Part shown: piece by piece, positions 41,845-55,636 of the stretch | Position numbering within the stretch: the first letter of the stretch is position 1 | Layout of the letters: every line of letters starts with the position of its first letter | DNA from: an uncultured virus (IMG/VR IMGVR_UViG_3300012005_000005) | Taxonomy: Duplodnaviria > Heunggongvirae > Uroviricota > Caudoviricetes | IMG/VR virus record: IMGVR_UViG_3300012005_000005 | Length of the DNA stretch: 64,000 bases | Reading direction: 5' to 3' (one strand) | Notes under the pieces: generated by a model | The model's input: only the letters and a program-made list of their open reading frames with translations | Told to the model about the DNA's origin: nothing | Databases searched by the model: none | Made by a program: the position numbers and the translations under genes

Positions 41845-42375
41845 CTACTCATTTTTTATAATCTCATTTTCATTAAACAATCTAATAGATCGTATTATAC
41901 CAATATTAGTTAAAGTCACTTTCTCTATAAGAACGCCAAATTTCTTCACTTCGTTTTTCACTTTTCTTGTTATTAAAGTATCTATTTCTATATTTATGCA
42001 GTCTTCCCAAGAAGAAGAAATCATTATATCTTTTATTATTCCTTGTGCAACATCTGAAAGTGCGTCTTTTGCATCATAGACTTCTAATAAAAAAATCTTT
42101 ACATCATATATCTTATATTTAACAATAGCTTTAATAACAATATTTTTCCCATCCTTTGTTACTAAAGACTGAGAAGGTAAGTCTAAGGTAGTTATAACTA
42201 CATGTTGTGCTATTATTTCATCATAAAAAGGTATTTTTAGATAAAATCCTTTTTTAAAACTTTTACTATATTTTCCTCCTCTTAGGCGCACAGCTTCTTC
42301 ATATTCTTTTATTATAAAAAAAGGTTTTATTTCATTTACTAATGAAACCAACCAATCAATTAATTTGTCAAACAT
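41845..42375 (-). CDS. SPFH/Band 7 domain protein
   Basis: IKEYEEAVRLRGGK...GFYLKIPF...QSLVTKDG; start moved to MFDKL. Confidence 0.85.
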   Translation of the reverse strand: MFDKLIDWLVSLVNEIKPFFIIKEYEEAVRLRGGKYSKSFKKGFYLKIPFYDEIIAQHVVITTLDLPSQSLVTKDGKNIVIKAIVKYKIYDVKIFLLEVYDAKDALSDVAQGIIKDIMISSSWEDCINIEIDTLITRKVKNEVKKFGVLIEKVTLTNIGIIRSIRLFNENEIIKNE

Positions 42376-43129
42376 ATTTATACTTCCATTTAAATCCCCC
42401 ACTACTTTTTCTTTTTCCCAAGCAAACTTCAGAAATATGCCTATTATTTATACTAAGTTTCCTGAAAACATCCGTTATAGATGACCACTCTTTGATAAAG
42501 TTTTCTTTTAAATCATACTGTAAAACTTCTTTTTTGTGAGAATCTAATGCCTCTAATCTTTTTTTAGAATGAATATTTCTTCTTTCTTCTAAACTAAAAG
42601 GTTCTAATTGCTTTTTATTTAATTTTATTGTATTTAAACGCTTCCTCTCAGTATCTAAATTAAAAGGCAATATTTTTGTTTTTCCATACAAAGACATTTT
42701 ATTTTTTGTTTCTTTAGATAACTTTCTTCCTTTATTAGACTCACTAATTTTTCTTCTTGTTTCATCAGAATTTATTGTGCCTATTTTATTTAATCTTATC
42801 TTTTCTTTCGTTTCTTCTGAATGTTTTCCTCCTTTTCCTGGCTCTTTTATATTCAAAAGATTATATCCTGCTTCTTTATATTGTCTCCAATAAAATATTT
42901 CATAGTTATCTAATATTTCTTGAGAGATTTCTTTTGGTAATATTTGAACTACTTCAAATATATGATTTTCCCACCTATATTTAAGTAATGAGTAATATAA
43001 TCTTTTCTGTCCCTTGCAATTAAGGTTTTTATAAGCAGACTTTCTCTTAGTTAGATACCATGATTGTCCTATATAAACAGCTCCTGCGGGATTAGTTATT
43101 TTATAAATTGTAGGAGTATTAATATTCAT
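42368..43129 (-). CDS. GIY-YIG homing endonuclease with NUMOD3 and NUMOD1 domains
   Basis: IYKITNP..VYIGQS, HSEETKEKI repeats, VLQYDL..FIKEW. Confidence 0.85.
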   Translation of the reverse strand: MNINTPTIYKITNPAGAVYIGQSWYLTKRKSAYKNLNCKGQKRLYYSLLKYRWENHIFEVVQILPKEISQEILDNYEIFYWRQYKEAGYNLLNIKEPGKGGKHSEETKEKIRLNKIGTINSDETRRKISESNKGRKLSKETKNKMSLYGKTKILPFNLDTERKRLNTIKLNKKQLEPFSLEERRNIHSKKRLEALDSHKKEVLQYDLKENFIKEWSSITDVFRKLSINNRHISEVCLGKRKSSGGFKWKYKYV

Positions 43130-43790: not shown

Positions 43791-44054
43791 TTAGGTATTT
43801 TTTATTTCTTCTATTCCAAAGTGTTCTCCTGTTTTCAGAAAATGTTTTTCATCCCCAAAACAAATTTCTCCTTCTGCTACTTTATCTGCATAATCCTGAG
43901 TGCAGCCAAGAATTGTAACTAATTCTTTTTTTATCTCACTTTTTTGCTCCTCTGTAATATAAATATCCAGCCTTCTTAAAAAAGAAGGAAAGTTACCAAC
44001 TGTTGTACAGTAAGTAGTTATAGCGTTGTTTATTTTTTTTAGTGTTTTATCCAT
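43791..44054 (-). CDS. Hypothetical protein
   Basis: 87 aa. Confidence 0.55.
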   Translation of the reverse strand: MDKTLKKINNAITTYCTTVGNFPSFLRRLDIYITEEQKSEIKKELVTILGCTQDYADKVAEGEICFGDEKHFLKTGEHFGIEEIKNT

Positions 44055-44055
44055 G

Positions 44056-44412
44056 TTATTTAGATTTATATATTTCCCACTTTAGCGGTAGTTTTTCATC
44101 AGGATTTTTTAAATTCCAAGTTTCTATTCCACAATTAGACATCAAACTTTCAGTTTTTAAATCAATATTGCATCCGCATAGTGTACAATGATCATCTAAT
44201 CTATTAGAGCTATAATCACTGATAAGTTTTGCATTTTTACTCATAAATTCGCAAGATTCACATATCAATCTTCTTCTAATTATTTCATCTTGTTTATCCT
44301 TTGGTAGTTTTCCAAGTTTATCTTTTACTTTATTTACTACTGCTTCCAATATCTTTTCTTTATTTTTTAAAGCTAAAGGAACTAAATCAGCGTATTCACT
44401 AAATAGTGACAT
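44056..44412 (-). CDS. Zn-binding conserved phage protein
   Basis: RRLICESC...CTLCGC...C. Confidence 0.65.
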   Translation of the reverse strand: MSLFSEYADLVPLALKNKEKILEAVVNKVKDKLGKLPKDKQDEIIRRRLICESCEFMSKNAKLISDYSSNRLDDHCTLCGCNIDLKTESLMSNCGIETWNLKNPDEKLPLKWEIYKSK

Positions 44413-44767
44413 TTTTATTTTGGTTTTGTTTATTATAAAATTCTAAAGCAAATTGATCTCTTTTTTTCCATAAGTTTGCAATTTGCTCTTTTATTCCTAT
44501 TACTATTCTTTCTTTTGTTAAATCTGTGTATTTAGGGCTGCTTTTTACTTTTTTTATTTTATTTAGTAAATATTTAATATAATTGTTTGTTTTATAAGGA
44601 CTTGCAACTATTGTACCTATTTTTTTGATGTGTATTGGCTCTTCTGCTAACGTAGTGAGGTTTCTCACTATTTCTTTCCAATAAAGTTTATTAACCTTCT
44701 CCACTATCTTTACATCTAAGTTTAGATTAGTTGCAACCATCTTATTTACTATATTTATAGTCTTCAT
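44399..44767 (-). CDS. HU/IHF-like protein
   Basis: VATNLNLD..IVEKV...IHIKKIGT pattern. Confidence 0.5.
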   Translation of the reverse strand: MKTINIVNKMVATNLNLDVKIVEKVNKLYWKEIVRNLTTLAEEPIHIKKIGTIVASPYKTNNYIKYLLNKIKKVKSSPKYTDLTKERIVIGIKEQIANLWKKRDQFALEFYNKQNQNKNVTI

Positions 44768-45102
44768 TTATTATCTATCTTAATTAGGAGTGCCACTATA
44801 CTGTCTAAATTAACATTTAGATTATCATTAACTACATATTCATTTATTGCTACTTTTTTAATAAGTCCTACACTTTTTAGTTTGCTCATAGTGTTTTTTA
44901 CTGAATCTACACTTTGTAATATTTTACTATTAAGTATTAAATCTTTTGTAGTTTGTGTAATCTTATACACCATAAAATAAGAAAGTACAGTAATGTCTGT
45001 ATCAGATAGTTTAATAGAAGACAATAAGCAATAAACTGAAATTAAAGACTTTGCTTGTTCTATCTTACTATTTGTTTTTTTATTAATTTTTATTAGTTGC
45101 AT
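44764..45102 (-). CDS. Winged-HTH-like protein
   Basis: SVKNTMSKLKSVGLIKK. Confidence 0.55.
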   Translation of the reverse strand: MQLIKINKKTNSKIEQAKSLISVYCLLSSIKLSDTDITVLSYFMVYKITQTTKDLILNSKILQSVDSVKNTMSKLKSVGLIKKVAINEYVVNDNLNVNLDSIVALLIKIDNK

Positions 45103-45515
45103 TATATTCCTAATAGTTTCATTATTTGTCTAAATTCATTTATAGAAGGGCAGTATCCTCTAAAATATTGATTAGGTAATAAAGGTCTTGTACCTTTATC
45201 TATAGATAAAACATTCCCACCTGATGTATACCAACAATGCCAGTACTTATCTTTGGTAAATGATAATATTTCAGGATTGCTGCACTTTGCTTGTTTCCAC
45301 CCTTCTTCTTCTATTTGTTCTTTTGTTAGGTATTGAGTTCTGATTTCAGCATCATTATCCTTTTTATTATATTTACAGAAGTTTTCTAAATCATATAAAT
45401 TTTCTATTATTTCTTTATCCCAAATACCTCTTACAGGATCATTTTCTATTTCATATTCATACCCTACTCTTATGTCTTCTATTTCGGGGGTGAAGTATTT
45501 TTTATCTTTTTCCAT
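45102..45515 (-). CDS. Hypothetical phage protein
   Basis: YFTPEIEDIRVGYEYE...LTKEQIEEEGW; start moved to MEKD, downstream of the promoter. Confidence 0.7.
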   Translation of the reverse strand: MEKDKKYFTPEIEDIRVGYEYEIENDPVRGIWDKEIIENLYDLENFCKYNKKDNDAEIRTQYLTKEQIEEEGWKQAKCSNPEILSFTKDKYWHCWYTSGGNVLSIDKGTRPLLPNQYFRGYCPSINEFRQIMKLLGI

Positions 45516-45536
45516 AACTATTTGGTTTATAAAGAG

Positions 45537-45568
45537 CAAATATAATCAATTTTTATGACTTTACCAAA
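45537..45568 (-). promoter_or_regulatory. Bacteroidota sigma-A promoter
   Basis: TTTG-N20-TATATTTG. Confidence 0.75.
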
Positions 45569-45600
45569 TTTATTTTTAATCTTTGTTGATTATTTTAATT

Positions 45601-45651
45601 AAAAAAAGCCATCAGCCGATAGGGGATACCCCTGTCCTATGCTGACAGCTT
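45601..45651 (-). terminator. Long hairpin plus U run
   Basis: AGCTGTCAGC...GCTGATGGCT followed by a T run. Confidence 0.65.
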
Positions 45652-45656
45652 AAATT

Positions 45657-45687
45657 AAAAAGTCCCAAGATGGAAATCTTAGGACTT
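45657..45687 (-). terminator. Terminator of attenuator 3
   Basis: AAGTCCTAAGA-TTTCCA-TCTTGGGACTT then TTT. Confidence 0.75.
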
Positions 45688-45725
45688 ATATATTTTCAAT
45701 ACCAAGTTTATTTTTTATGAGTCTT

Positions 45726-45830
45726 TTAAGCCCAATCTGTATCTCTCGTATTAACATAACCCTTCTTGTCGTATGTAAAACACGGCTGTGTAGTTTGTTG
45801 ATGCCAAAATCGAGATACTAAATTTTTCAT
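45726..45830 (-). CDS. Leader peptide 3 (34 aa, MKNLVSRFWHQQTTQPCFTYDKKGYVNTRDTDWA)
   Basis: ATG 4 nt after TAGTTTTG; followed by a terminator; block of R(CGA)/F/W/H/Q/T/P/C codons. Confidence 0.7.
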   Translation of the reverse strand: MKNLVSRFWHQQTTQPCFTYDKKGYVNTRDTDWA

Positions 45831-45834
45831 AAAG

Positions 45835-45866
45835 CAAAACTAAGTAATTTTCTTGAAACTACCAAA
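45835..45866 (-). promoter_or_regulatory. Bacteroidota sigma-A promoter
   Basis: TTTG-N20-TAGTTTTG. Confidence 0.75.
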
Positions 45867-45883
45867 ACTATTTTAAAAAATAA

Positions 45884-46501
45884 CTAAAAATAATTAAAAA
45901 TCCAGGAATTTTCCTCTATTTCTACTAATTCAATACTTAAATCTTTAATTATTGTCTCTTTTTCACACTCATATACTTCTAAAGGGAGTTCTACTTTTTC
46001 TTTAAAAGGTTTTTCATATTTTTCATAAGAAAATATAAATCCCTTAGTAGTAAATTGCCTTTTAGCTACACAATTTATAATGCCAGTATATCTAATTTTT
46101 AATTCCTTAGAAGCTTCTTTAGCACTTATAAATTCTTTTATAAACTCTCCAAATAAATCATATTGATAAACTTTTTTGGGTTCTACAGGAACATAAGTTT
46201 TCCATTTTTTTCTTACTTCATCCCCTTTTAAAATATTTAAAAGTTGAAAACCCTTATCTAAATAAAGATTTATATAATATTTTTCTTTGCTTAGAAGAAT
46301 TTGTTTATTTAAAAATAGTAATTCTTCTAAAATTTCAAATTTATGATTTATTACACCATATTTTTTAAAAGAATTTAATAGTTTATGTTGTTGCTTACAG
46401 TTTAAAGTTTTATAATGTGACCATCTTCTTTCTATATTTAAAGATTCTCCTATGTAAATTTTATTAGTAGGAGAAGTTATTTTGTATATTCCTGATGTCA
46501 T
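45884..46501 (-). CDS. GIY-YIG homing endonuclease with NUMOD1
   Basis: SGIYKITSP..IYIGES and VYQYDLFGEFIKEF; start moved to MTSG. Confidence 0.85.
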   Translation of the reverse strand: MTSGIYKITSPTNKIYIGESLNIERRWSHYKTLNCKQQHKLLNSFKKYGVINHKFEILEELLFLNKQILLSKEKYYINLYLDKGFQLLNILKGDEVRKKWKTYVPVEPKKVYQYDLFGEFIKEFISAKEASKELKIRYTGIINCVAKRQFTTKGFIFSYEKYEKPFKEKVELPLEVYECEKETIIKDLSIELVEIEENSWIFNYF

Positions 46502-46507
46502 TGCATA

Positions 46508-46539
46508 CAAAATTATAAAAACTTTTTGATATTACCAAA
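46508..46539 (-). promoter_or_regulatory. Bacteroidota sigma-A promoter
   Basis: TTTG-N20-TAATTTTG. Confidence 0.7.
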
Positions 46540-46552
46540 TTTATTTTTAAAA

Positions 46553-46626
46553 GTGGGATAGAGGAGTCACCATCTCCATGCAGTTCCGTTTTACAGACGG
46601 TCTGACTTGCGCTGAGCATTATCCCA
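46553..46626 (-). tRNA. tRNA-Tyr(GTA), atypical/degenerate
   Basis: Acceptor TGGGATA/TATCCCA; anticodon arm CCGT-CTGTAAA-ACGG; non-canonical D and T loops. Confidence 0.55.
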
Positions 46627-46703
46627 ATATACATATCCAATCAGTATTAGTTCCATTAAACTCTACTAACCAAAGAATATTATTTAAGTTAATTATAAAC
46701 ATG

Positions 46704-46792
46704 CGGAAAACAGTGTACTCGAAACACATACCTCACAGGGTACATACGCCTTAGCAGGGCGTTGCTATTGTCCTAATATAGCTTTATTTTCC
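46704..46792 (-). tRNA. tRNA-Ser(GCT)
   Basis: ACGCC-CTGCTAA-GGCGT, long variable arm, TTCGA loop. Confidence 0.85.
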
Positions 46793-46797
46793 TTTTG

Positions 46798-46883
46798 CAG
46801 TAGGTGGAGGATTCCAACCCCCGTCGGTGTTACCCGCCTTCAGTTTTCAGGACTGCGCCATTAGCAAACTCTGGCAACCTACT
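46798..46883 (-). tRNA. tRNA-Ser(TGA)
   Basis: Acceptor AGTAGGT/ACCTACT; CAGT-CCTGAAA-ACTG; long variable arm. Confidence 0.75.
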
Positions 46884-46888
46884 ATTTG

Positions 46889-46962
46889 TACCGACAGTCC
46901 GATTTGAACGGACAAACTACACTTTCTAAGAATGTAAGGCGTACCAATTACCTCATGTCGGC
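46889..46962 (-). tRNA. tRNA-Leu(TAG)
   Basis: TACATT-CTTAGAA-AGTGTA; GTCCG-TTCAAAT-CGGAC. Confidence 0.85.
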
Positions 46963-46967
46963 GTTTG

Positions 46968-47042
46968 TGTTCCTACTGAGATTCGAACTCAGCCTTGTAA
47001 GATTTTTAAGACCTTTGCGTCCACCTACTGCGCCATAGGAAC
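46968..47042 (-). tRNA. tRNA-Leu(TAA)
   Basis: GTTCCTA/TAGGAAC; AAGGT-CTTAAAA-ATCTT; CTGAG-TTCGAAT-CTCAG. Confidence 0.88.
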
Positions 47043-47047
47043 GTTTG

Positions 47048-47119
47048 TACCCTTAGTAGGTCACGAGCCTACACTGATTACCTTTTGAGGGTAACGCCTC
47101 TGCATTGGGCTATAAGGGC
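47048..47119 (-). tRNA. tRNA-Leu(CAA)
   Basis: GCCCTTA/TAAGGGT; TTACC-CTCAAAA-GGTAA. Confidence 0.8.
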
Positions 47120-47121
47120 AT

Positions 47122-47152
47122 AAAAAAACCTTGTCTCAATTAAGCAACAAGG
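47122..47152 (-). terminator. Terminator of attenuator 1
   Basis: CCTTGT...ACAAGG plus T7, 2 nt upstream of tRNA-Leu(CAA). Confidence 0.8.
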
Positions 47153-47180
47153 TGTATATGTGTTTGAATGATTATAGGTA

Positions 47181-47264
47181 TTATCCTAATTCTATATCAT
47201 ACATTCCCCTGTCGCTATTTTGTAGCGATAAACTATAGAGACTATATGATGTAAATTGTTTCAT
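47181..47264 (-). CDS. Leader peptide 1 (27 aa, MKQFTSYSLYSLSLQNSDRGMYDIELG)
   Basis: Between promoter and terminator; 9 consecutive Ser/Tyr/Leu codons. Confidence 0.8.
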   Translation of the reverse strand: MKQFTSYSLYSLSLQNSDRGMYDIELG

Positions 47265-47279
47265 TATTTATTTAAAATG

Positions 47280-47311
47280 CAAATATACGTAAAATTTTTG
47301 ACATTGCCAAA
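47280..47311 (-). promoter_or_regulatory. Bacteroidota sigma-A promoter
   Basis: TTTG-N20-TATATTTG. Confidence 0.8.
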
Positions 47312-47319
47312 TATTTATT

Positions 47320-48333
47320 TTAACAAGTAGTTATAAAGTCTTCCCAAGCTTCTAAAGCTTCTTCATTATACCTTTTTAGAGATTTTTTTTCTTTTCTTAC
47401 TAAGGAGTTTCCATTTTTTAGAGCGTGTAACATTTTTTTTACTACTGCTTCTATGTTTGTAGTGGATGTTTTGCTTTCTTCTGGCAACCACTCTATTGTG
47501 TTTCCTACTATTATAGGAATTCCTTGTGATACAAAATCAGCGGCTACAATATTAAAAGATTCATTAAATGATAATTGCATTCCTAAATCCATATTTGAAA
47601 TAAGTCCTAAAAACTCCTCATGTGGAAGCCAAGAATGCTCAACTAACTCATGCTTAGTATTCTTAAACAAAGCTCTTAAATTCTTAACTACAGATTCTCC
47701 GCCTTGTTCTTGTCTTGTACTATTTACATGAAAGCGTATTAATTTATTTTGGTAATTGCCTAAACTTATAGAGGCAAAAGCTTGAAATAGTTGATTTTTC
47801 ATTGGTCTTAAGGCTCCAAAACAACCTATATCAATTACCTTTTTATTTTTAAACTCTCCCAAAAAATTTCTATCATCACAACCACTATAAATATTTGGAA
47901 GATATGGAAAATTTGTATAAAGTGTAGCCATAAAGGAAGTTTGAGCTTCTTTAGAATTAAAAGCTACTGATACATTAGAAATCTTTTTGTATTCTTTTAT
48001 CCAATCTATTGCTACACCCTCATTAGCTAAAAATGGAACTTCTGAGTGAATCCTTATTACAAATAACAAATCTTTATATAGTTTCTGTAATTCTTGTATT
48101 TTTTTGGGTGTAACCCAAATAGCTTCTATTATACATACATCCGGTCTATATTCATTAAGTTCTTTGTCTATGCTATTTCCATCTATACAGATTTTTAGAT
48201 CAGCTTCTATGTCTAAGTGTTCTTCTAAGCTCTCTTCGGTCATCTTTGCAGAATTAAATAATCCTGATGACAAGCCTTTGAAAGAATAGTTTCCGTAATT
48301 ATTTTGTTTTTTTAAAAGAAAAAGTATTTTCAT
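47320..48333 (-). CDS. Glycosyltransferase (GT-B fold-like)
   Basis: IGCFGALRPMKNQ...MDLGMQLSFNESFNIVAAD. Confidence 0.8.
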   Translation of the reverse strand: MKILFLLKKQNNYGNYSFKGLSSGLFNSAKMTEESLEEHLDIEADLKICIDGNSIDKELNEYRPDVCIIEAIWVTPKKIQELQKLYKDLLFVIRIHSEVPFLANEGVAIDWIKEYKKISNVSVAFNSKEAQTSFMATLYTNFPYLPNIYSGCDDRNFLGEFKNKKVIDIGCFGALRPMKNQLFQAFASISLGNYQNKLIRFHVNSTRQEQGGESVVKNLRALFKNTKHELVEHSWLPHEEFLGLISNMDLGMQLSFNESFNIVAADFVSQGIPIIVGNTIEWLPEESKTSTTNIEAVVKKMLHALKNGNSLVRKEKKSLKRYNEEALEAWEDFITTC

Positions 48334-48560
48334 TATACTGCTGGGGCTGGGTTTATTGTTACATCAATTCTATCTGAAGCATCTGTTAGTGTGCTATTTA
48401 GTGAAGCTATTGCTCCTGCGGTCATTGTATTTCCACTTGGAGTTATTGCTGATTCATTATCTAATATAGTACTTATTAACACTAACAAATTAGATAATTG
48501 CGCAATATCATTTTGTTGATCTACAGTGAATGCTACAGGAGGAATTACATTTATTGGCAT
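48333..48560 (-). CDS. Hypothetical protein
   Basis: 75 aa, stop overlaps the next start. Confidence 0.55.
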   Translation of the reverse strand: MPINVIPPVAFTVDQQNDIAQLSNLLVLISTILDNESAITPSGNTMTAGAIASLNSTLTDASDRIDVTINPAPAV

Positions 48561-48570
48561 TATTTACATT

Positions 48571-48732
48571 TTAAAAACGAAAATTGGTAAACTCTTTTAA
48601 TAACCATAAAAGACCTATAATTATTATTAGTGCTGAAAATAATTTTCTTTTTGGCTGGGTTAGTGTTATTAAATCAAGTAACAGAAAAGCTATTACATAA
48701 AATATTAAAACTAAGATTACTGCTGTTAACAT
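48571..48732 (-). CDS. Small two-TM membrane protein (53 aa, possible holin)
   Basis: MLTAVILVLIFYVIAFLLLDLITLTQPKRKLFSALIIIIGLLWLLKEFTNFRF; below the track length cutoff. Confidence 0.55.
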   Translation of the reverse strand: MLTAVILVLIFYVIAFLLLDLITLTQPKRKLFSALIIIIGLLWLLKEFTNFRF

Positions 48733-48763
48733 TGTTTATTATTTATTTATTTAAAAAGATTAA

Positions 48764-49228
48764 TTAATGAATAATTTTACCTACTAAAAACTCTATTACC
48801 CCTAATAAAATTAATAATCCTGTTCCATAGGTTGTTATTTGTGTAACCTTCTTCTCAATAAATCTGACTCTCATATCAATATCTTGCAAAGATGCTTCAA
48901 AATTAGCTTTATATAAGGCATCATAAGAATCTGAAACATTTAGTTTTTCCTTCTCTAAACTCTCAATTCTTCTTTCTGTTCCATTTGCAAGATTTTTAAT
49001 ATCTTCCCTTACACCTTCTATTCTTACTTTTAGTTCTACAAGTAGGTCATGGTCATTTCCATTGGTATTGACCAATACTCTACTTGCATCAATAGCGTTA
49101 CTGGCAACTAATTTACTTGCGGATTGTGCGGCATTAGCAATTACTGTTGCTGCCTGTTCTGCTGCCTTATTAATTAGTTTAACTGCATCGGCTGCATTTT
49201 TTATTGCTACTTCTTCATTATCATCCAT
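48764..49228 (-). CDS. Coiled-coil protein with C-terminal TM helix
   Basis: Ala-rich helix, DHDLLVEL motif, C-terminal hydrophobic segment. Confidence 0.65.
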   Translation of the reverse strand: MDDNEEVAIKNAADAVKLINKAAEQAATVIANAAQSASKLVASNAIDASRVLVNTNGNDHDLLVELKVRIEGVREDIKNLANGTERRIESLEKEKLNVSDSYDALYKANFEASLQDIDMRVRFIEKKVTQITTYGTGLLILLGVIEFLVGKIIH

Positions 49229-49236
49229 AAGTTATA

Positions 49237-49268
49237 CAAATATACGTAAAATAATTGGAATTACCAAA
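49237..49268 (-). promoter_or_regulatory. Bacteroidota sigma-A promoter
   Basis: TTTG-N20-TATATTTG. Confidence 0.75.
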
Positions 49269-49323
49269 TCCCATTATTCTTAGTCAGTCATAAATATAAA
49301 ATATGTAGTTTTAGTAGTATAAA

Positions 49324-49397
49324 TGGTGGACAGATGTGGGAGTCGAACCCAAACAATCTCCTTGCAAAGGAGTTGACCTGCCGTTGGCATCACGCCC
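49324..49397 (-). tRNA. tRNA-Ala(TGC)
   Basis: CTCC-TTTGCAA-GGAG, G3:U70 pair, encoded CCA; bulged acceptor stem. Confidence 0.75.
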
Positions 49398-49460
49398 ATA
49401 AAATTCCAAGCTCAATCCATCACGCAAGGATGTGCTTCTATACTGTTGGCTTGGACTTAG

Positions 49461-49534
49461 TTGTCGAAGTAGGATTTGAACCTACGGCCTCTTTCTTATC
49501 AGGAAATTGCGCTACCAAGCTGCGCCATTCGACA
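49461..49534 (-). tRNA. tRNA-Ile(GAT)
   Basis: TGTCGAA/TTCGACA; TTTC-CTGATAA-GAAA. Confidence 0.88.
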
Positions 49535-49539
49535 ATATG

Positions 49540-49611
49540 TTGATGCAGATGGAATCGAACCAACAATCACGGAGATATAAGCTCCGCACTCTACCATTGA
49601 ATTATGCATCA
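49540..49611 (-). tRNA. tRNA-Ile(TAT)
   Basis: TGATGCA/TGCATCA; CGGAG-CTTATAT-CTCCG. Confidence 0.85.
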
Positions 49612-49763
49612 ATATAATGGAAATTAGGAAACGTATTATTTTCTTTTTTATCCTTCGAGATGGGAAGCGCATTTCCACTAAGGTGCTATTTTGAAAGTTC
49701 AATCCTTAATAAGAACTTCCTTTTATCTAATAAGGCTTAAATATAGTGAAAAATAGCAAAACC

Positions 49764-49839
49764 TGGCAGAACACACGGGAGTTGAACCCGTTCCGTGCAC
49801 CTTGACAGGGTGACATCTTATCCGTTTGACCTGTGCTCT
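49764..49839 (-). tRNA. tRNA-Asp(GTC)
   Basis: AGAGCAC/GTGTTCT; CACC-CTGTCAA-GGTG; encoded CCA. Confidence 0.85.
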
Positions 49840-50861
49840 ATTAATTCTCTAAGTATTTCTACTCTTTGTTTATTTGTTTCTATTATATTATAATGTCTTT
49901 TTCCATATTCATAATTCATTTCTCCATAATCTTCTACTGCATTTGGGTTATTTATAAAAAATTTAAAAGCTTTATACCAATCCTGACCTTTGTCACAAAA
50001 AACTATACCTTTATGGTCTTTATCTGCTGTAAATGGTAAAACATTGCTGCAAATAAAGGGTTTTTTTGTAGAGGATGCCTCTAAAAACTTTAGATTTGAC
50101 TTACAACTGTTAAAAAAAGTGTCTTCTAATGGTGCAACTGTTATATCTCCATAATTATAATGCTCCATATACTTATCTAAAGTAAGAGTGTCTCTTCTAA
50201 TATATGAATTAGACTTTTTACATATAGATTCCATACTATACCAAGCATTTTGTTTACTATTTGTAGGGTTGTTATATCCACAAAGAGTAAAATTAGCCTT
50301 TTTTTTGAAGTCTGTATCTGTTCCAAGCCTTTGAAACAAACCACTAATGGATTTTAAGTCATTATAATGTGTACTTCCTGATACATATAAGAATCTTAAT
50401 TTATCTGAATCAGTTTTTCTATTCTCTACATCAAAGGAAAGTGCATTTGGTATAACAAAAATATTTTTATTATATACTTTATAAACATCCCTTAGTAACT
50501 CATTGGTTACAAATACTAAATCTGCCTGTTTGCATGCTTCTATTAAACGTTCTCCCAACTTTACCCTATTCCAATCTGTGTAGTATAAGTGATTATAAGG
50601 AAGTATATAGTAGTCATCTATATCTAAAACTATTTTAAAACCATATTTCTTCCTTAAAATGTTCATTACTTCCCACTCTTCAAACATCATACGTTTTAGA
50701 AAAACTATATCACAATCAAATATGGTCTCGTCCTTATAACAATCTTTGTGTCTTACAATTTTAATACTATCATTTTTTTCTAAATCAAAATAGTTGGTGG
50801 GTAAAAGAAGTCGGTGATAATCACATCCATCATTTTCGCTGTATAGGATAGTTATTCTCAT
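49818..50861 (-). CDS. Glycosyltransferase (GT-B, family 4-like)
   Basis: GCDYHRLLLP, LDIDD, VIPNA, APLEDTFFNSCKSNLKFLE. Confidence 0.85.
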   Translation of the reverse strand: MRITILYSENDGCDYHRLLLPTNYFDLEKNDSIKIVRHKDCYKDETIFDCDIVFLKRMMFEEWEVMNILRKKYGFKIVLDIDDYYILPYNHLYYTDWNRVKLGERLIEACKQADLVFVTNELLRDVYKVYNKNIFVIPNALSFDVENRKTDSDKLRFLYVSGSTHYNDLKSISGLFQRLGTDTDFKKKANFTLCGYNNPTNSKQNAWYSMESICKKSNSYIRRDTLTLDKYMEHYNYGDITVAPLEDTFFNSCKSNLKFLEASSTKKPFICSNVLPFTADKDHKGIVFCDKGQDWYKAFKFFINNPNAVEDYGEMNYEYGKRHYNIIETNKQRVEILRELIEHRSNG

Positions 50862-52078
50862 TCTACTACTTCAAAATTTGGTATTGGAATTACAAACTTT
50901 CCTTTATATCCAGCAGCTTTACATTTAGCAATTATTTCCTCTTTAAAATTCCACGATAGTATGACTAAATAATCAGGAGGATTTCTCATAAAATCATGAA
51001 TTGAAATAATTGGAATAAAAGTACCTGGTGAATATTTTCCTATTTTCTCAGGTGTTTCATCCACTATATATTTTATCCTTCCCACTGTAATGCCTGCACT
51101 GTTTAGTAGTGTATTTCCCTTTGCACTTGCTGCAAATGCTGCTACTGTTCCTCTCAAATTTAGGGCACTTATACCATCAGAAAATTCATTTATAGTTTGT
51201 TTCACTTCTTTGGCAAACTTTTTATAAGGTTCAATCCTATAGTAAGCCTCTTCTATCTTCAAAAAATCATAAACAGACTTATCAGGAAGTCCATTGCCAA
51301 TGGTTACTCTTACTGTTCCCCCATGAATATTTTGCTTTTCAACTTGTAGTATATTTAATCCAAATTTTGAACAAAGGATACCAATTGGATTTATAGAAAA
51401 ATAACTAAGATGTTCAAAATAGACAGTATCGAATTCTTTGTTTTCTATAAAATCAATTAGATATGGGAATTCAAGTATTAATTTACCTTCCGGTTTCAAC
51501 ATTATTTTTGCACCCTCTATAAAATCTTTCACATTGTCTACATGTGCGAATACATTAGTAGCAGTTATTAAATCTGCTTTACCATAACCGCTTCTTAATA
51601 AACGATTTGCAGTTTCTACACTCCAAAATTCAGTTAAAATAGGTACACCCACTGCTTCAGAAATTGCTGCTAAATTTTCTGCTGGGTCTATATTTAAAAC
51701 TTTTTCTCCTATAACTTTTTTAAACTGTTCAAGTAATGCTCCATCATTCCCTGCTATATCAATATGAAAAGAGTTTTCATTTAAACCCATTTTTTCTTTA
51801 AGATCAATAGCCATTTTCCTACAATGTTCAACATAAGTATTACTTATAGAAGAACGATAAACATAGTTTGAAAACAAAGTATGAGGATCTATTACAACAG
51901 ACAATTGACTCAGTCCGCAATCTGCACATAGTAAAACTTTTAATGGATAGGTTTCAGAATGAATGGGGTCTGATGTAGAGTTTGCTAAGTTATTACTTAA
52001 AGGCATATTACCTAAATCGAGGTAAGGTACTAACTTAGTACTGTTACATATTCTGCAATTTGTTTGATTTTTGTTCAT
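50858..52078 (-). CDS. SAM-dependent NDP-sugar C-methyltransferase-like protein
   Basis: CRIC...LGNMPLSN...CADCGLSQL, DIAGNDG, TNVFAHV, YFEHLSYF, AASAKGNTLL. Confidence 0.88.
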   Translation of the reverse strand: MNKNQTNCRICNSTKLVPYLDLGNMPLSNNLANSTSDPIHSETYPLKVLLCADCGLSQLSVVIDPHTLFSNYVYRSSISNTYVEHCRKMAIDLKEKMGLNENSFHIDIAGNDGALLEQFKKVIGEKVLNIDPAENLAAISEAVGVPILTEFWSVETANRLLRSGYGKADLITATNVFAHVDNVKDFIEGAKIMLKPEGKLILEFPYLIDFIENKEFDTVYFEHLSYFSINPIGILCSKFGLNILQVEKQNIHGGTVRVTIGNGLPDKSVYDFLKIEEAYYRIEPYKKFAKEVKQTINEFSDGISALNLRGTVAAFAASAKGNTLLNSAGITVGRIKYIVDETPEKIGKYSPGTFIPIISIHDFMRNPPDYLVILSWNFKEEIIAKCKAAGYKGKFVIPIPNFEVVE

Positions 52079-52095
52079 TTTTTATTTACTTTGTG

Positions 52096-53409
52096 TTAAT
52101 TATGTATTAATAAACATCCTGATACCTTTATCCACTTACTTGCTCCATATTTTTTAATAATATCATCAAAATAAGTCCAATCTGAGCTGTGACTTTTTAT
52201 ATCTCTCCATCCTACGCTGCATGCTGCACTCTTCTTTATCATTACTCCTGCACAATCTATATACCCTAACTGTAATTTACAATCTATTACTCCATATTTA
52301 TAATTATCCCACTTTAGATTGTCTGCACTTACTTGTCCATAGTTTAAAACAGTGGTTTGTTGAGGAGCTAAATAACTATGAACCATTTTAGAACAGTATG
52401 TAGCTACAGCATTTGGATTTTCTTTAAATCCAGTTAATAGGGTTTCTATATATGTTGGAACATGGTGATTATCTGCATTTGTAATTACTACATAGTCAGT
52501 ATTGGGTGATATTATATCCATATTTTTCAGTCCCCACTGTCTATAAAAATGTCCCCAATATCCTTTTCTTTCTGCAAATTCAATATAAGTTATTCTCTCA
52601 TCTCCTATTGTGGAAATAATTTTCTTCAGTCCTGTCTCATTTTTTCCATCATGAATTAGCAGCAACTTCCAATTTTTGTGAGTTTGATTTATTAAAGATG
52701 ATACTATTTCTGGATAAGTATTATAAACAGGACAAATAAAAGTAACTTTTTCTGAAAGATCTTTCTTAAAAACTGAATTAAATTCTTCTGTTCTACCTAA
52801 ATAACTTCTTATTTCTGTGTCCCATAAAGGACTGTTTGCTAATATAGGTTCTACTATTATTGCCTCCATTCCAAGTTTTTGAATCTGCAATAAGAAGTTA
52901 TTTTCTTCTCCGTGTTCAAACGAATAGCATTCTAATTTAGTATAAATTCTTTCCACAGGAAAAAAAAGCTTTTTTGAAGCACTTTTTGAAATAAGAAAAC
53001 CTGTTGTTCTTATATGTGGTCTAATTTGATTAGATATTTCTGTGCAAATTACTGCATTTTCATTTTCCTGAGACTTTTGAAGAAATGTTTTAAGAAAGTC
53101 TTTAGTCATAGGAATAACATCATCAGTTATCCACAGTAATTTATCCCAATTATTATCAAAACCTGAAAGTCTTTCTTTGCATACATCTTGAAAAACACCT
53201 ATATCATAACCAATATTTTCTCTTTGGATATATTTTATATTCTCTGCATCACACACATTTTTAAATTCCCTAACACTTACTTCTCTATCTATATTATGTA
53301 TAACAATTAGTTCTGCGCCTTCTTGATTACTTTGTTTCCAACAATCAATCCAACGTTTTAAATTATTTAATCTGTTGTAAATTATAATTACTACCTTGAT
53401 TTTTTGCAT
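52096..53409 (-). CDS. Two-domain glycosyltransferase (GT2-like)
   Basis: RENIGYDIG...PHIRTTGF N-domain; VTFICPVYN...QTHKNWKLLLIHDG...TNADN C-domain. Confidence 0.8.
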   Translation of the reverse strand: MQKIKVVIIIYNRLNNLKRWIDCWKQSNQEGAELIVIHNIDREVSVREFKNVCDAENIKYIQRENIGYDIGVFQDVCKERLSGFDNNWDKLLWITDDVIPMTKDFLKTFLQKSQENENAVICTEISNQIRPHIRTTGFLISKSASKKLFFPVERIYTKLECYSFEHGEENNFLLQIQKLGMEAIIVEPILANSPLWDTEIRSYLGRTEEFNSVFKKDLSEKVTFICPVYNTYPEIVSSLINQTHKNWKLLLIHDGKNETGLKKIISTIGDERITYIEFAERKGYWGHFYRQWGLKNMDIISPNTDYVVITNADNHHVPTYIETLLTGFKENPNAVATYCSKMVHSYLAPQQTTVLNYGQVSADNLKWDNYKYGVIDCKLQLGYIDCAGVMIKKSAACSVGWRDIKSHSSDWTYFDDIIKKYGASKWIKVSGCLLIHN

Positions 53410-53417
53410 ATATAGTG

Positions 53418-53449
53418 CAAAGATAATATAAAAAAATCAAATTGCCAAA
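53418..53449 (-). promoter_or_regulatory. Bacteroidota sigma-A promoter
   Basis: TTTG-N20-TATCTTTG. Confidence 0.75.
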
Positions 53450-53467
53450 TTTATTTTGTATTCATTG

Positions 53468-53538
53468 AGCGAATGGTGTGAATCGAACACACATCAAAAC
53501 TTTGGAAGAGTCTTGTTTTACCATTAAACTACACTCGC
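53468..53538 (-). tRNA. tRNA-Gly(TCC)
   Basis: GCGAGTG/CATTCGC; AGACT-CTTCCAA-AGTTT. Confidence 0.88.
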
Positions 53539-53541
53539 ATG

Positions 53542-53615
53542 TTTCGGGTGCAAGATTCGAACTTGCGGTATCCTACTTATGAGGAAGGTGAGATAGACCT
53601 CTTCTCTAACCCGAA
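53542..53615 (-). tRNA. tRNA-Met(CAT) (Ile2 not excluded)
   Basis: TTCGGGT/ACCCGAA; loop CTCATAA; GCAAG-TTCGAAT-CTTGC. Confidence 0.8.
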
Positions 53616-53764
53616 ATGTGGGACGTTGTTTTTTTATAGAACTTCGCCCAAAAACTATATGTTTTGACATTTTGCTGCGATTGATGCAATACGCTATTAT
53701 AATTCACGTACCCGTCTTCATTCAAACGTCTATGTGTCTGTCAACAACACATTACGTACAGTCG

Positions 53765-53917
53765 CTGTAGAAATAGGGATCGAACCTATAAGTGGAGATT
53801 AAAGTAAATACAAAATAAGATGTACATTTTACTGGTCAACCGATTATATCTACTCCGTTTCTTTTATCCACGCCACCGAGACAAGGTGGTGCGTCTGCCA
53901 AATTCCGCCACTCTACA
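53765..53917 (-). ncRNA. tRNA-like RNA (GTC loop) with 83-nt structured variable arm
   Basis: TGTAGAG/TTCTACA acceptor, Leu-like D arm, CCACC-TTGTCTC-GGTGG, ATAGG-TTCGATC-CCTAT. Confidence 0.7.
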
Positions 53918-53977
53918 ATTTATTATTTTCTACATTTTCCTACATTAAGGCNNNNNNNNNNGATGTTGTATAGTCCA

Positions 53978-54061
53978 TTAGTATCTTCTTAAAAGTGCTA
54001 AAATACAAAGAGCAATTCCACCTATTATTACTGAACCTATAGCTTCTAAAAATGTTTCCAT
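53978..54061 (-). CDS. Putative 27-aa membrane peptide (METFLEAIGSVIIGGIALCILALLRRY)
   Basis: ATG 4 nt after the TAACTTTG promoter element. Confidence 0.4.
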   Translation of the reverse strand: METFLEAIGSVIIGGIALCILALLRRY

Positions 54062-54065
54062 AATG

Positions 54066-54097
54066 CAAAGTTATATAATTATTTTGAACTTTCCAAA
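54066..54097 (-). promoter_or_regulatory. Bacteroidota sigma-A promoter
   Basis: TTTG-N20-TAACTTTG. Confidence 0.7.
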
Positions 54098-54107
54098 TTT
54101 ATTTTTG

Positions 54108-54184
54108 CGTTCAAGGAAGGATTCGAACCCGTCTGTCTTCGCTTTAAAAGAGCGTAGCTTATACCTGACTTAAGTTTCGAGGGT
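54108..54184 (-). pseudogene. Chimeric tRNA-Lys(TTT)
   Basis: CGCT-CTTTTAA-AGCG anticodon arm and GTTCGAATCC are present, but 5' ACCCTCG does not pair with 3' CTTGAAC. Confidence 0.6.
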
Positions 54185-54186
54185 AT

Positions 54187-54218
54187 AAAAAAACCCAAAA
54201 GTTTTTGTGCTCTTGGGT
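54187..54218 (-). terminator. Terminator of attenuator 2
   Basis: ACCCAAGA...TTTTGGGT plus T run, just upstream of the tRNA. Confidence 0.8.
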
Positions 54219-54246
54219 CTCATTATGAATCTATGTTAATTTCTTT

Positions 54247-54351
54247 TTATATTCCTGTTCCAACATAAGGATTCTGTTTACCCACAGAGCGAGATTTCTC
54301 TCCGCCATCGGCATTCATTCTATTATCCACTATGTTTACGTTTAAATACAT
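54247..54351 (-). CDS. Leader peptide 2 (34 aa, MYLNVNIVDNRMNADGGEKSRSVGKQNPYVGTGI)
   Basis: Between promoter and terminator; 16 consecutive purine-start codons. Confidence 0.75.
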   Translation of the reverse strand: MYLNVNIVDNRMNADGGEKSRSVGKQNPYVGTGI

Positions 54352-54375
54352 TGAAATTTTTATAAGTTTAAAGTG

Positions 54376-54406
54376 CAAATATAGGAAAACTTTTTTATAT
54401 TGCAAA
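54376..54406 (-). promoter_or_regulatory. Bacteroidota sigma-A promoter
   Basis: TTTG-N19-TATATTTG. Confidence 0.75.
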
Positions 54407-54449
54407 ATTTATTTTTAAAAATAATTGATTTTAATTATTATATACTTCT

Positions 54450-54713
54450 TTAATCATTTTGATGTGTATTTAATAATTTTTCAAAATCTTTTGGGGAAAG
54501 ATCAATCAAACATGTATCACCTGATTTAAGTTGTATCTGTGTTACATGTAAAACAGGGTCTCCATCAGCATCTCTGTGTGTTGGTCTATATGATTCTAAC
54601 TGAGAAGGTAAAAACTTAAACCAACTGTCTTCATATTCTTCTTTACCCATTACCTCTGCCCTACTTACACTATAAATTCTTATGTGTACTCTTATAAATC
54701 TTTCTGTAAACAT
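54450..54713 (-). CDS. Hypothetical protein
   Basis: Start moved to MFTERF, coupled by TAATG to the upstream gene. Confidence 0.6.
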   Translation of the reverse strand: MFTERFIRVHIRIYSVSRAEVMGKEEYEDSWFKFLPSQLESYRPTHRDADGDPVLHVTQIQLKSGDTCLIDLSPKDFEKLLNTHQND

Positions 54714-55120
54714 TATTTTATTTTTATTGATGTTGGTTTGTCTACTATAAATATAGCTTCTCCTGAATGTTTTTCCCACAGAGACAGCCAATCATTCCAT
54801 GCTATTTTTACAGGAAGTAGTCCACCATACTCTGCTACTAATATTGTATGTTCTTCATCTAATGGGTAGAAGTCATGTATTTCATTTGTATTTATTCCAT
54901 ATGGTTTATAATAGAATTCTAAATTCTTAGTGTTAAACATCTTCTCAAACCTATCATCCATGCCAAACTCTGAATCCTCATCATCCTCATCATTATCAAG
55001 GCCAAGTTTTCTTCTTGTTTTTCTATCTAAACCTCTTTCATCTTCTACATCGTCTCTATTTTCAGAGAGATAATCTTTTTTTGGTTTTGCATATTTAACT
55101 AATACTATTATTCTACTCAT
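54713..55120 (-). CDS. Hypothetical protein
   Basis: 135 aa with an acidic patch. Confidence 0.65.
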   Translation of the reverse strand: MSRIIVLVKYAKPKKDYLSENRDDVEDERGLDRKTRRKLGLDNDEDDEDSEFGMDDRFEKMFNTKNLEFYYKPYGINTNEIHDFYPLDEEHTILVAEYGGLLPVKIAWNDWLSLWEKHSGEAIFIVDKPTSIKIK

Positions 55121-55325
55121 TGTCTATTAATTGATTTGGCTGAAGGGGTGAAAGTAAAGTTTCATTTAGTGATCCACGAAAAGAATTATTAATTTTTTTG
55201 TAAAATTTAACTATACCAGTTTCATCTGTAAGAAAAATATAATGCTTTGGGCAAGATGAAGTTTTTTTAATATCTCCTTCTTCATTTATTGTTACCCACT
55301 TCTTCTTTAAAAAGAAATCTAACAT
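55113..55325 (-). CDS. Hypothetical protein
   Basis: 70 aa. Confidence 0.5.
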   Translation of the reverse strand: MLDFFLKKKWVTINEEGDIKKTSSCPKHYIFLTDETGIVKFYKKINNSFRGSLNETLLSPLQPNQLIDNE

Positions 55326-55636
55326 TATATTAATTCACTTAAGTGTTCAAAAATTTTTTCAATTCGTGAATTTTGTTTATTCACCTCATCAATCTCACTA
55401 TTAAACATTTGTAGAAAGTCTCGTTTAACATCAGGCTCTTCATTAGAAGATTTTATGTCTATTGGAACTCTCCTATTTAGGATACAGTTAAGTTTTTCTT
55501 CTATGCTATATAAATATTCTCTTTGTTGAGAATTATATTTAGACAACATATCTAAATTTAGCATTAATAAAGTATTGTTTTTTTCATCTTTTGTGTTTTT
55601 TACTTCTTTATTGTCTTGATATGCGTATGCTGACAT
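55325..55636 (-). CDS. Hypothetical coiled-coil protein
   Basis: 103 aa after a promoter. Confidence 0.6.
   Translation of the reverse strand: MSAYAYQDNKEVKNTKDEKNNTLLMLNLDMLSKYNSQQREYLYSIEEKLNCILNRRVPIDIKSSNEEPDVKRDFLQMFNSEIDEVNKQNSRIEKIFEHLSELI

Follow-up and report, generated by a model that had tools for sequence, protein, structure and literature searches.

A leader unit without tRNA genes in a crAss-like phage, probably the leftover front end of a tRNA-array attenuator

The orphan unit and its surroundings

Between positions 45866 and 45601, the minus strand of the window (the whole 64,000-nucleotide stretch of uncultured-virus DNA analyzed here) carries a host-type promoter, a 34-codon open reading frame (ORF), a strong terminator and, behind it, another terminator-like hairpin followed by a U run, flanked by two transcription units that have their own promoters (Table 1). 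The window has a G+C content of 31%, nearly all genes up to ~58 kb lie on its minus strand, and a contiguous tRNA region occupies ~46.5-54.2 kb. The ORF at 33736-35397 matches the major capsid protein of the crAss-virus family (4.4e-36), and by this sequence match the phage is crAss-like; no GenBank phage gave a DNA match to window positions 44000-48500. The phage's own 138-aa protein, encoded just downstream of the unit, is also recorded on a 121,587-base contig, so that roughly half of the genome lies outside the 64-kb window. A second GIY-YIG/NUMOD homing-endonuclease position is present at 42368-43129 (minus), and these genes lie beside or inside tRNA arrays.

Table 1. Coordinates of the orphan unit and of the transcription units on either side
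Feature	Position	Strand	Remarks
GIY-YIG/NUMOD homing-endonuclease gene	45884..46510	minus	GIY-YIG 3.6e-7, NUMOD1 5.5e-10; own promoter 46539..46508; directly upstream of the orphan unit
Promoter, Bacteroidetes type (-33 TTTG, 20-nt spacer, -7 TAnnTTTG)	45835..45866	minus	strict match to TTTG-N20-TAnnTTTG; putatively active
Leader ORF including stop (34 codons + stop)	45726..45830	minus	ATG 4 nt past the -7 box; aligns with leaders of eight related phages
Test block, 13 consecutive codons for Arg/Phe/Trp/His/Gln/Thr/Pro/Cys	45774..45812	minus	codons 7-19, all eight kinds present
Terminator 1 (attenuator terminator)	45655..45687	minus	12-pair stem, 4-nt loop, U run; hairpin 45687..45660
Second hairpin + 7 U	45601..45651	minus	hairpin 45651..45606, -22.9 kcal/mol, z -3.6; resembles an intrinsic terminator
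Next transcription unit	45102..45568	minus	own promoter 45568..45537 and 138-aa gene; 142 homologues, no Pfam family

The promoter follows the pattern TTTG-N20-TAnnTTTG, which we take to be the two-box consensus of Bacteroidetes promoters. This pattern occurs 14 times in the window compared with 2.53 ± 1.59 expected occurrences (0 of 100 shuffles reached 14), and 13 of the 14 matches lie on the coding strand ahead of ORFs. We infer that the promoter is active and that the leader is translated, and the short distance between the -7 box and the ATG suggests that the mRNA is probably leaderless. The earlier note had described a leaderless 34-codon ORF with codons for Arg, Phe, Trp, His, Gln, Thr, Pro and Cys, and its account of the codon content was confirmed: all 13 codons of the test block belong to these eight amino acids (P = 1.9e-8 against a background of 0.254, their share of 15,405 residues in 43 minus-strand ORFs of at least 100 aa), and the orphan leader alone exceeds 10/13 among the 449 short ORFs of the window (13-70 aa, both strands). 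The ORF body itself folds unremarkably (z -1.3). Elsewhere, the tRNA region contains (54097-53978, minus) a further strict promoter match with a strongly hydrophobic ORF of 27 codons beginning 4 nt past it; a masked N run follows at 53952-53961.

Terminator 1 starts 41 nt past the ORF stop and has a predicted stability of -15.0 kcal/mol (z -4.6, with 0 of 200 shuffles as stable). It had been claimed that just a ~50-nt hairpin and a U run lie behind it, which holds, and the promoter of the next gene follows. This second hairpin has the predicted anatomy of an intrinsic (Rho-independent) terminator, namely a stable stem that includes G+C and, immediately behind it, a U run, and judging from its sequence is best read as a second one. 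Since a terminator hairpin stands directly after the last tRNA in the relative L072, the second hairpin possibly marks the old end of a lost tRNA operon. A contig of run X1/X3 leaves the window sequence inside this hairpin, at 45609, and its letters there resemble a shorter version of the hairpin, a hint that extends over 30 letters.

The tRNA genes of the window specify Leu (3), Ser (2), Ile (2), Asp, Ala, Met and Gly (ARAGORN at default and relaxed settings; Rfam tRNA model), and no tRNA of any kind was found within 2.6 kb downstream of the orphan leader. The earlier claim that the tRNAs named by the block are those absent from the window was borne out, as none for Arg, Phe, Trp, His, Gln, Thr, Pro or Cys was detected in the 64 kb by ARAGORN (default or relaxed) or by the Rfam tRNA model, which was run over the whole window at the gathering score and then up to E = 1. 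Under the laxest ARAGORN setting, Tyr, Lys and a questionable "Thr(TGT) plus intron" at 53917..53764 join the list. Several weak calls appear at relaxed thresholds only, all on the minus strand: Tyr(GTA) at 46553-46625, after the Leu/Ser array; Lys(TTT) at 54107-54175, past the terminator of the unit that begins at 54406; and Ser(TGA) at 46797-46883 and Ala(TGC) at 49328-49399. With these calls the tRNA list of the window becomes longer than the eight default calls. The tRNA-like gene at 53764-53935 (minus) has acceptor, D, anticodon and T arms, an insertion of ~85 nt after the anticodon arm and a non-canonical anticodon loop; it is conserved in the relative L080 (about 2620-2777) and is not called by Infernal.

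Similar leaders and their tRNA arrays in related phages

The 142 homologues of the 138-aa protein led to 57 further viral loci, four of which had tRNAs nearby. One of the loci, L032, carries a Pro-Thr-Cys-Phe-Trp-Gln-His-Arg(ACG) array, and directly ahead of it lie a promoter, an ORF of 40 codons that includes a block of those same amino acids, and a terminator. After the set had been enlarged by a tRNA search in the records of the loci, by their tRNA regions and by two pattern scans, a similar leader was found in nine related crAss-like records representing eight distinct sequences (L067, L080, L081, L082 and L079, which are identical here, L072, L075, L110 and L112). Behind the leader, all nine records carry a matching tRNA array, with the members Pro, Thr, Cys, Phe, (Trp), Gln, His, (Arg). 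The first tRNA begins 58-109 nt past the leader stop, with the exception of L082/L079, where the distance is 620 nt and an HNH endonuclease gene with its own promoter is inserted. A fragment behind the terminator of L082 was considered as a duplicated half of tRNA-Pro and rejected, for it gave no convincing alignment with the downstream tRNA-Pro.

The codon content of the leaders follows that of the arrays. The best 13-residue window contains 12-13 residues of the set in the nine relatives and 13 in the orphan, and a score of at least 12/13 was found in these leaders only across the 697,949 nt of window and loci scanned, some of which are redundant. Trp codons occur in seven leaders, all with tRNA-Trp in the array, while the two leaders lacking Trp precede arrays lacking tRNA-Trp (9/9 in agreement). 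In the four phages tested, each of which has several units, the residues of these leaders matched their own array at 0.49-0.64, whereas the value did not exceed 0.18 for any other array in that phage (4/4). Over nine leaders, consisting of the window's own and those of eight relatives (L079 was not separately tested), a strict promoter match precedes five and a one-mismatch version three, and none was found before L082. The orphan and the leaders of eight related phages align at 22-42% identity over very short sequences, and common descent of the leaders therefore rests mainly on composition, context and architecture. The orphan thus has the alignable ORF and the codon block of this family and lacks the matching array behind the terminator; the window and its near-identical copies L001 and L002 are the only members of the family without one. 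An earlier suggestion was to look in relatives for such tRNAs behind the leader, and their presence in 9/9 records runs against the possibility, raised at the same time, that they would never occur there. The set of tRNAs that had been predicted was right in its amino acids and wrong in Arg(TCG), as the Arg anticodon of the relatives is ACG. An Arg(ACG) tRNA reads CGA codons through inosine wobble, so that the relatives' Arg(ACG) would decode the CGA of the block.

The position of the array is also regular. In the four tRNA-rich relatives examined (L079-L082), it lies first in line within one contiguous tRNA region, whereas the orphan sits at the far end of its tRNA region and not at the head. 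This position therefore does not tell an in-place deletion apart from a leader that was moved or copied without its array.

Searches for further members yielded little. A search of GenBank phages with the array region of a relative returned only scattered single-tRNA matches in unrelated phages, and the tRNA sequences of the relatives' arrays were too diverged to retrieve further members. Back-translated patterns of the test block gave two matches in viral contigs, both near-identical to the window, 23 in metagenome contigs, none of them leader-like (no promoter, short ORF in context, or tRNAs), and none in genome contigs. A pattern for the leader family had five matches in genome contigs, none leader-like, and a 20-base pattern common to two relatives retrieved those two alone. 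A profile of nine leaders run against 1.84 billion proteins had two matches, of which one is credible (a 36-aa ORF like the L067 leader); the other is a spurious repeat protein.

We then compared the best upstream partner of the 5' arm of the terminator with those of 500 shuffled sequences. In five of the eight intact relatives, a segment of the ORF pairs with this arm far beyond chance (0, 0, 1, 4 and 4 of 500 shuffles as good); in the four of the five where its position was measured, the segment lies 22-27 nt upstream of the stop codon's last base. Because the paired letters vary between phages on both sides, conserved pairing is favored over conserved sequence. Among the remaining intact relatives, two have moderate partners (47 and 41 of 500) and L067 has none (379 of 500). 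In the window itself, the terminator arm of the Leu/Ser unit pairs strongly (-13.8 kcal/mol, 0 of 500). For the orphan, it had been described previously that the ORF can pair near its end with the terminator arm; this pairing exists and is the best available, but at -5.6 kcal/mol it stands at chance level (304 and 314 of 500 shuffles as good in two runs), and no partner stands out for the second hairpin either (144 of 500). Since L067 likewise lacks the pairing and two relatives have it only moderately, its absence from the orphan is weak evidence of decay.

Two other leader families were recognized in these phages. One stands ahead of Leu/Ser(/Tyr) arrays, includes the window unit 47311..47122 and matches its own arrays at 0.21-0.57. 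The other stands ahead of Lys/Val/Arg/Asn/Met arrays (L080, L081, L082 and L067), and the window unit starting at 54406 resembles it; its leaders match the immediate array poorly (0.06-0.26), and in one phage other arrays match at least as well. Codon matching therefore holds clearly in two of the three families and weakly in the remaining one, and is not a uniform rule. The Lys/Val/Arg/Asn/Met leaders are conserved between phages, their residues correspond largely to the amino acids of arrays further downstream, and what they sense may be a longer read-through transcript. Alternating Gly and Cys codons make up most of some very short ORFs or ORF tails (L110, ahead of its leader, L080 at about 790-870 and L082 at about 130-200, with tails of some leaders in L081 and L075), some with their own promoter just upstream of the leaders whose arrays begin with Pro, Thr and Cys. 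Moreover, tRNAs with the anticodon CTA (called "Pyl" by ARAGORN, that is, an amber suppressor) or, in one relative, with a four-letter anticodon are called at L080 4936-5008, L075 7699-7771 and L067 about 1775-1846. These calls hint at stop-codon recoding in some relatives; none such was seen in the window.

Origin of the orphan unit

The anatomy of the intact units and the covariation of leader and array suggest an attenuator that works by ribosome stalling. Promoter, short ORF translated from the start of the transcript, terminator and tRNA genes would follow one another; a ribosome short of the cognate tRNAs would stall in the test block and leave the downstream segment of the ORF free, the freed segment would pair with the 5' arm of the terminator, and transcription would continue into the tRNA genes, while smooth translation of the leader would allow the terminator to form. 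The orphan shares with such an attenuator the promoter directly upstream of a short ORF, the cluster of cognate codons and the intrinsic terminator, and it lacks the alternative antiterminator pairing and regulated genes downstream in the same transcript. We consider it probable that the orphan is a remnant, the front part of a leader-peptide transcription attenuator by which a tRNA array was formerly controlled. The proposal that an array is missing here is thereby supported, as a similar leader precedes a matching array in 9/9 related records and the window has none. Given the absent array, the pairing at chance level and the presence of only a terminator-like hairpin before a gene with its own promoter, the unit as sequenced most likely yields a transcript of ~175 nt that ends at the first terminator and no longer regulates anything in cis. 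The array was presumably lost by deletion, as opposed to the leader having been copied here without it. A plausible route is rearrangement driven by endonucleases, since a GIY-YIG gene adjoins the orphan and HNH genes interrupt the matching arrays of L075 and L082; no cleavage site or deletion scar was identified at the orphan. Homing-endonuclease genes, HNH-like in the relatives, were seen inside or beside the tRNA arrays of L075, L079/L082 and L067.

The earlier note had also raised the possibility that an array was collapsed in assembly at 45650-45660. The viral contigs L001 and L002 are gap-free and collinear with the window over 11.6 and 12.4 kb and identical to it through the orphan unit, and they differ from it by 2-3 SNPs only, all within 48517-48873. 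These SNPs of their own mark L001 and L002 as separate assemblies, which excludes a collapse. A 2710-nt Logan contig of run X1, possibly the window's own source, bridges the site with no differences (45062-47771), and an array of eight different tRNAs is not a collapsible repeat. An assembly artefact is thus extremely improbable. The stretch is contained in four DNA runs of one study, two of which are possibly the window's source, and no RNA run is among the sequencing runs listed for it. Related strains of ~85% identity are present in the same runs, as seen from contigs compared with the window, and one such contig (depth 9.5, ~85% identical) omits the 138-aa gene (window 45104-45522).

The array could instead lie in the half of the genome beyond the window, whether or not it has a leader of its own there, which would make the orphan a left-behind or duplicated front end. 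With 64 kb visible of a genome of probably ~121 kb, there is room for the eight tRNAs outside the window; the relative G002 has five tRNA genes scattered off its main tRNA region, and the homing-endonuclease genes in or beside the arrays of the window, L075 and L082 make a rearrangement plausible. On the other hand, L079-L082 keep this array first in line in one contiguous tRNA region, and the window holds this phage's whole contiguous tRNA region, which lacks it, so we regard this explanation as rather unlikely. That the orphan has been retained as a working stand-alone sensor of host tRNA supply, acting by read-through into the 138-aa and structural genes or through a trans-acting RNA or peptide, appears unlikely as well. 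In its favor, neither the promoter nor the ATG nor any of the 13 test codons is damaged, and the next operon starts right behind the unit. A precedent for a trans-acting attenuator RNA is the rnTrpL transcript of Sinorhizobium meliloti, described as leaderless (PMC6614838). Two strong predicted terminators in tandem stand against read-through, neither has a better-than-chance antiterminator (314 and 144 of 500), the downstream gene has its own promoter, and there are no diverged copies that would show conservation. The more specific form of this idea, in which the sensor was kept after the loss of the eight tRNA genes and times the structural-gene operon just downstream by read-through or by a trans-acting RNA or peptide, is in our view decidedly unlikely. 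A point against the preferred relic reading is that all copies of the orphan are near-identical, which permits no inference on selection; the intact promoter, start codon and 13-codon block could reflect a recent loss or equally a retained function.

It had further been proposed that the short hairpin RNA behind the terminator is itself the regulated product. Nothing else between the terminator and the next promoter is structured, and the hairpin folds with a stability well beyond that of shuffles (z -3.6), but a stem followed by 7 U has the look of an ordinary intrinsic terminator. No Rfam match was found up to E = 5 (44500-55500 searched), ARAGORN at its laxest setting called no tRNA in 45560-45700, and no similar sequence occurs in the locus of any relative; these results give no support to a tRNA remnant or a known RNA and make a role as the regulated product very unlikely. 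Lastly, the unit could be an ordinary small protein gene with tandem terminators and a coincidental codon block, small ORFs being abundant in phage genomes and the several Cys residues of the relatives' leaders being suggestive of a metal-binding mini-protein. A composition with P ~2e-8 that is unique among the 449 short ORFs, that recurs only ahead of matching tRNA arrays and whose profile finds a single credible match (of two) among 1.84 billion proteins renders this highly improbable.

Relation to known regulators and significance

Leader-peptide attenuators are known from the amino-acid operons trp, his, leu, thr, ilv and pheA, among which the thr and ilv leaders are multivalent. The units described here resemble them in having a promoter, a short ORF rich in codons linked to the product and an intrinsic terminator ahead of the genes under control, in that a segment of the ORF can pair with the 5' arm of the terminator in intact relatives, and, like the thr and ilv leaders, in that several amino acids would be sensed at once. 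They differ in that the regulated genes of the relatives are tRNA genes, so that the signal would be decoding capacity, in that eight amino acids are sampled, and in that the mRNA is probably leaderless; the orphan differs further in having nothing left to regulate and an alternative pairing at chance level. T-box riboswitches also sense tRNA status and choose between terminator and antiterminator, and to that extent are comparable; unlike these leaders, they bind tRNA directly and without an ORF, and their targets are aminoacyl-tRNA synthetase and amino-acid genes. At the orphan unit, neither a T-box nor any other Rfam family was matched. Homing endonucleases are known from phage tRNA regions, as exemplified by SegB in the T4 tRNA cluster, and the GIY-YIG gene abutting the orphan and the HNH genes in the arrays of L075 and L082 are alike in this respect.

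For any function that the orphan may have retained, the rnTrpL/peTrpL system of S. meliloti is a model, in which the short attenuator-terminated transcript and the leader peptide reportedly have roles of their own (PMC6614838, PMC7298713). In contrast to the orphan, the rnTrpL attenuator as portrayed there still controls trpE(G) in cis, and no trans target is known or predicted for the orphan.

A full-text literature search found attenuators of amino-acid, resistance and virulence operons and none for tRNA genes. We therefore describe the orphan as a degenerate member of a variant of leader-peptide attenuation, and this variant, acting on tRNA genes, was not found in print. The orphan amounts to a natural loss experiment, as the tRNA set specified by its leader is exactly the one found in relatives behind a similar element, and across the relatives leader content covaries with array content, as expected if the leader measures tRNA supply. 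It also shows an order of decay, in which the array and the switch pairing were lost first and the promoter, ORF and terminator remain. Its main value lies in this comparative evidence and in its use as a ready, natural negative control for work on intact units. If the proposed mechanism is true, these phages would regulate their own tRNA supply by sensing decoding speed, which would bear on how they cope with host codon bias and with host defenses that cut tRNAs.
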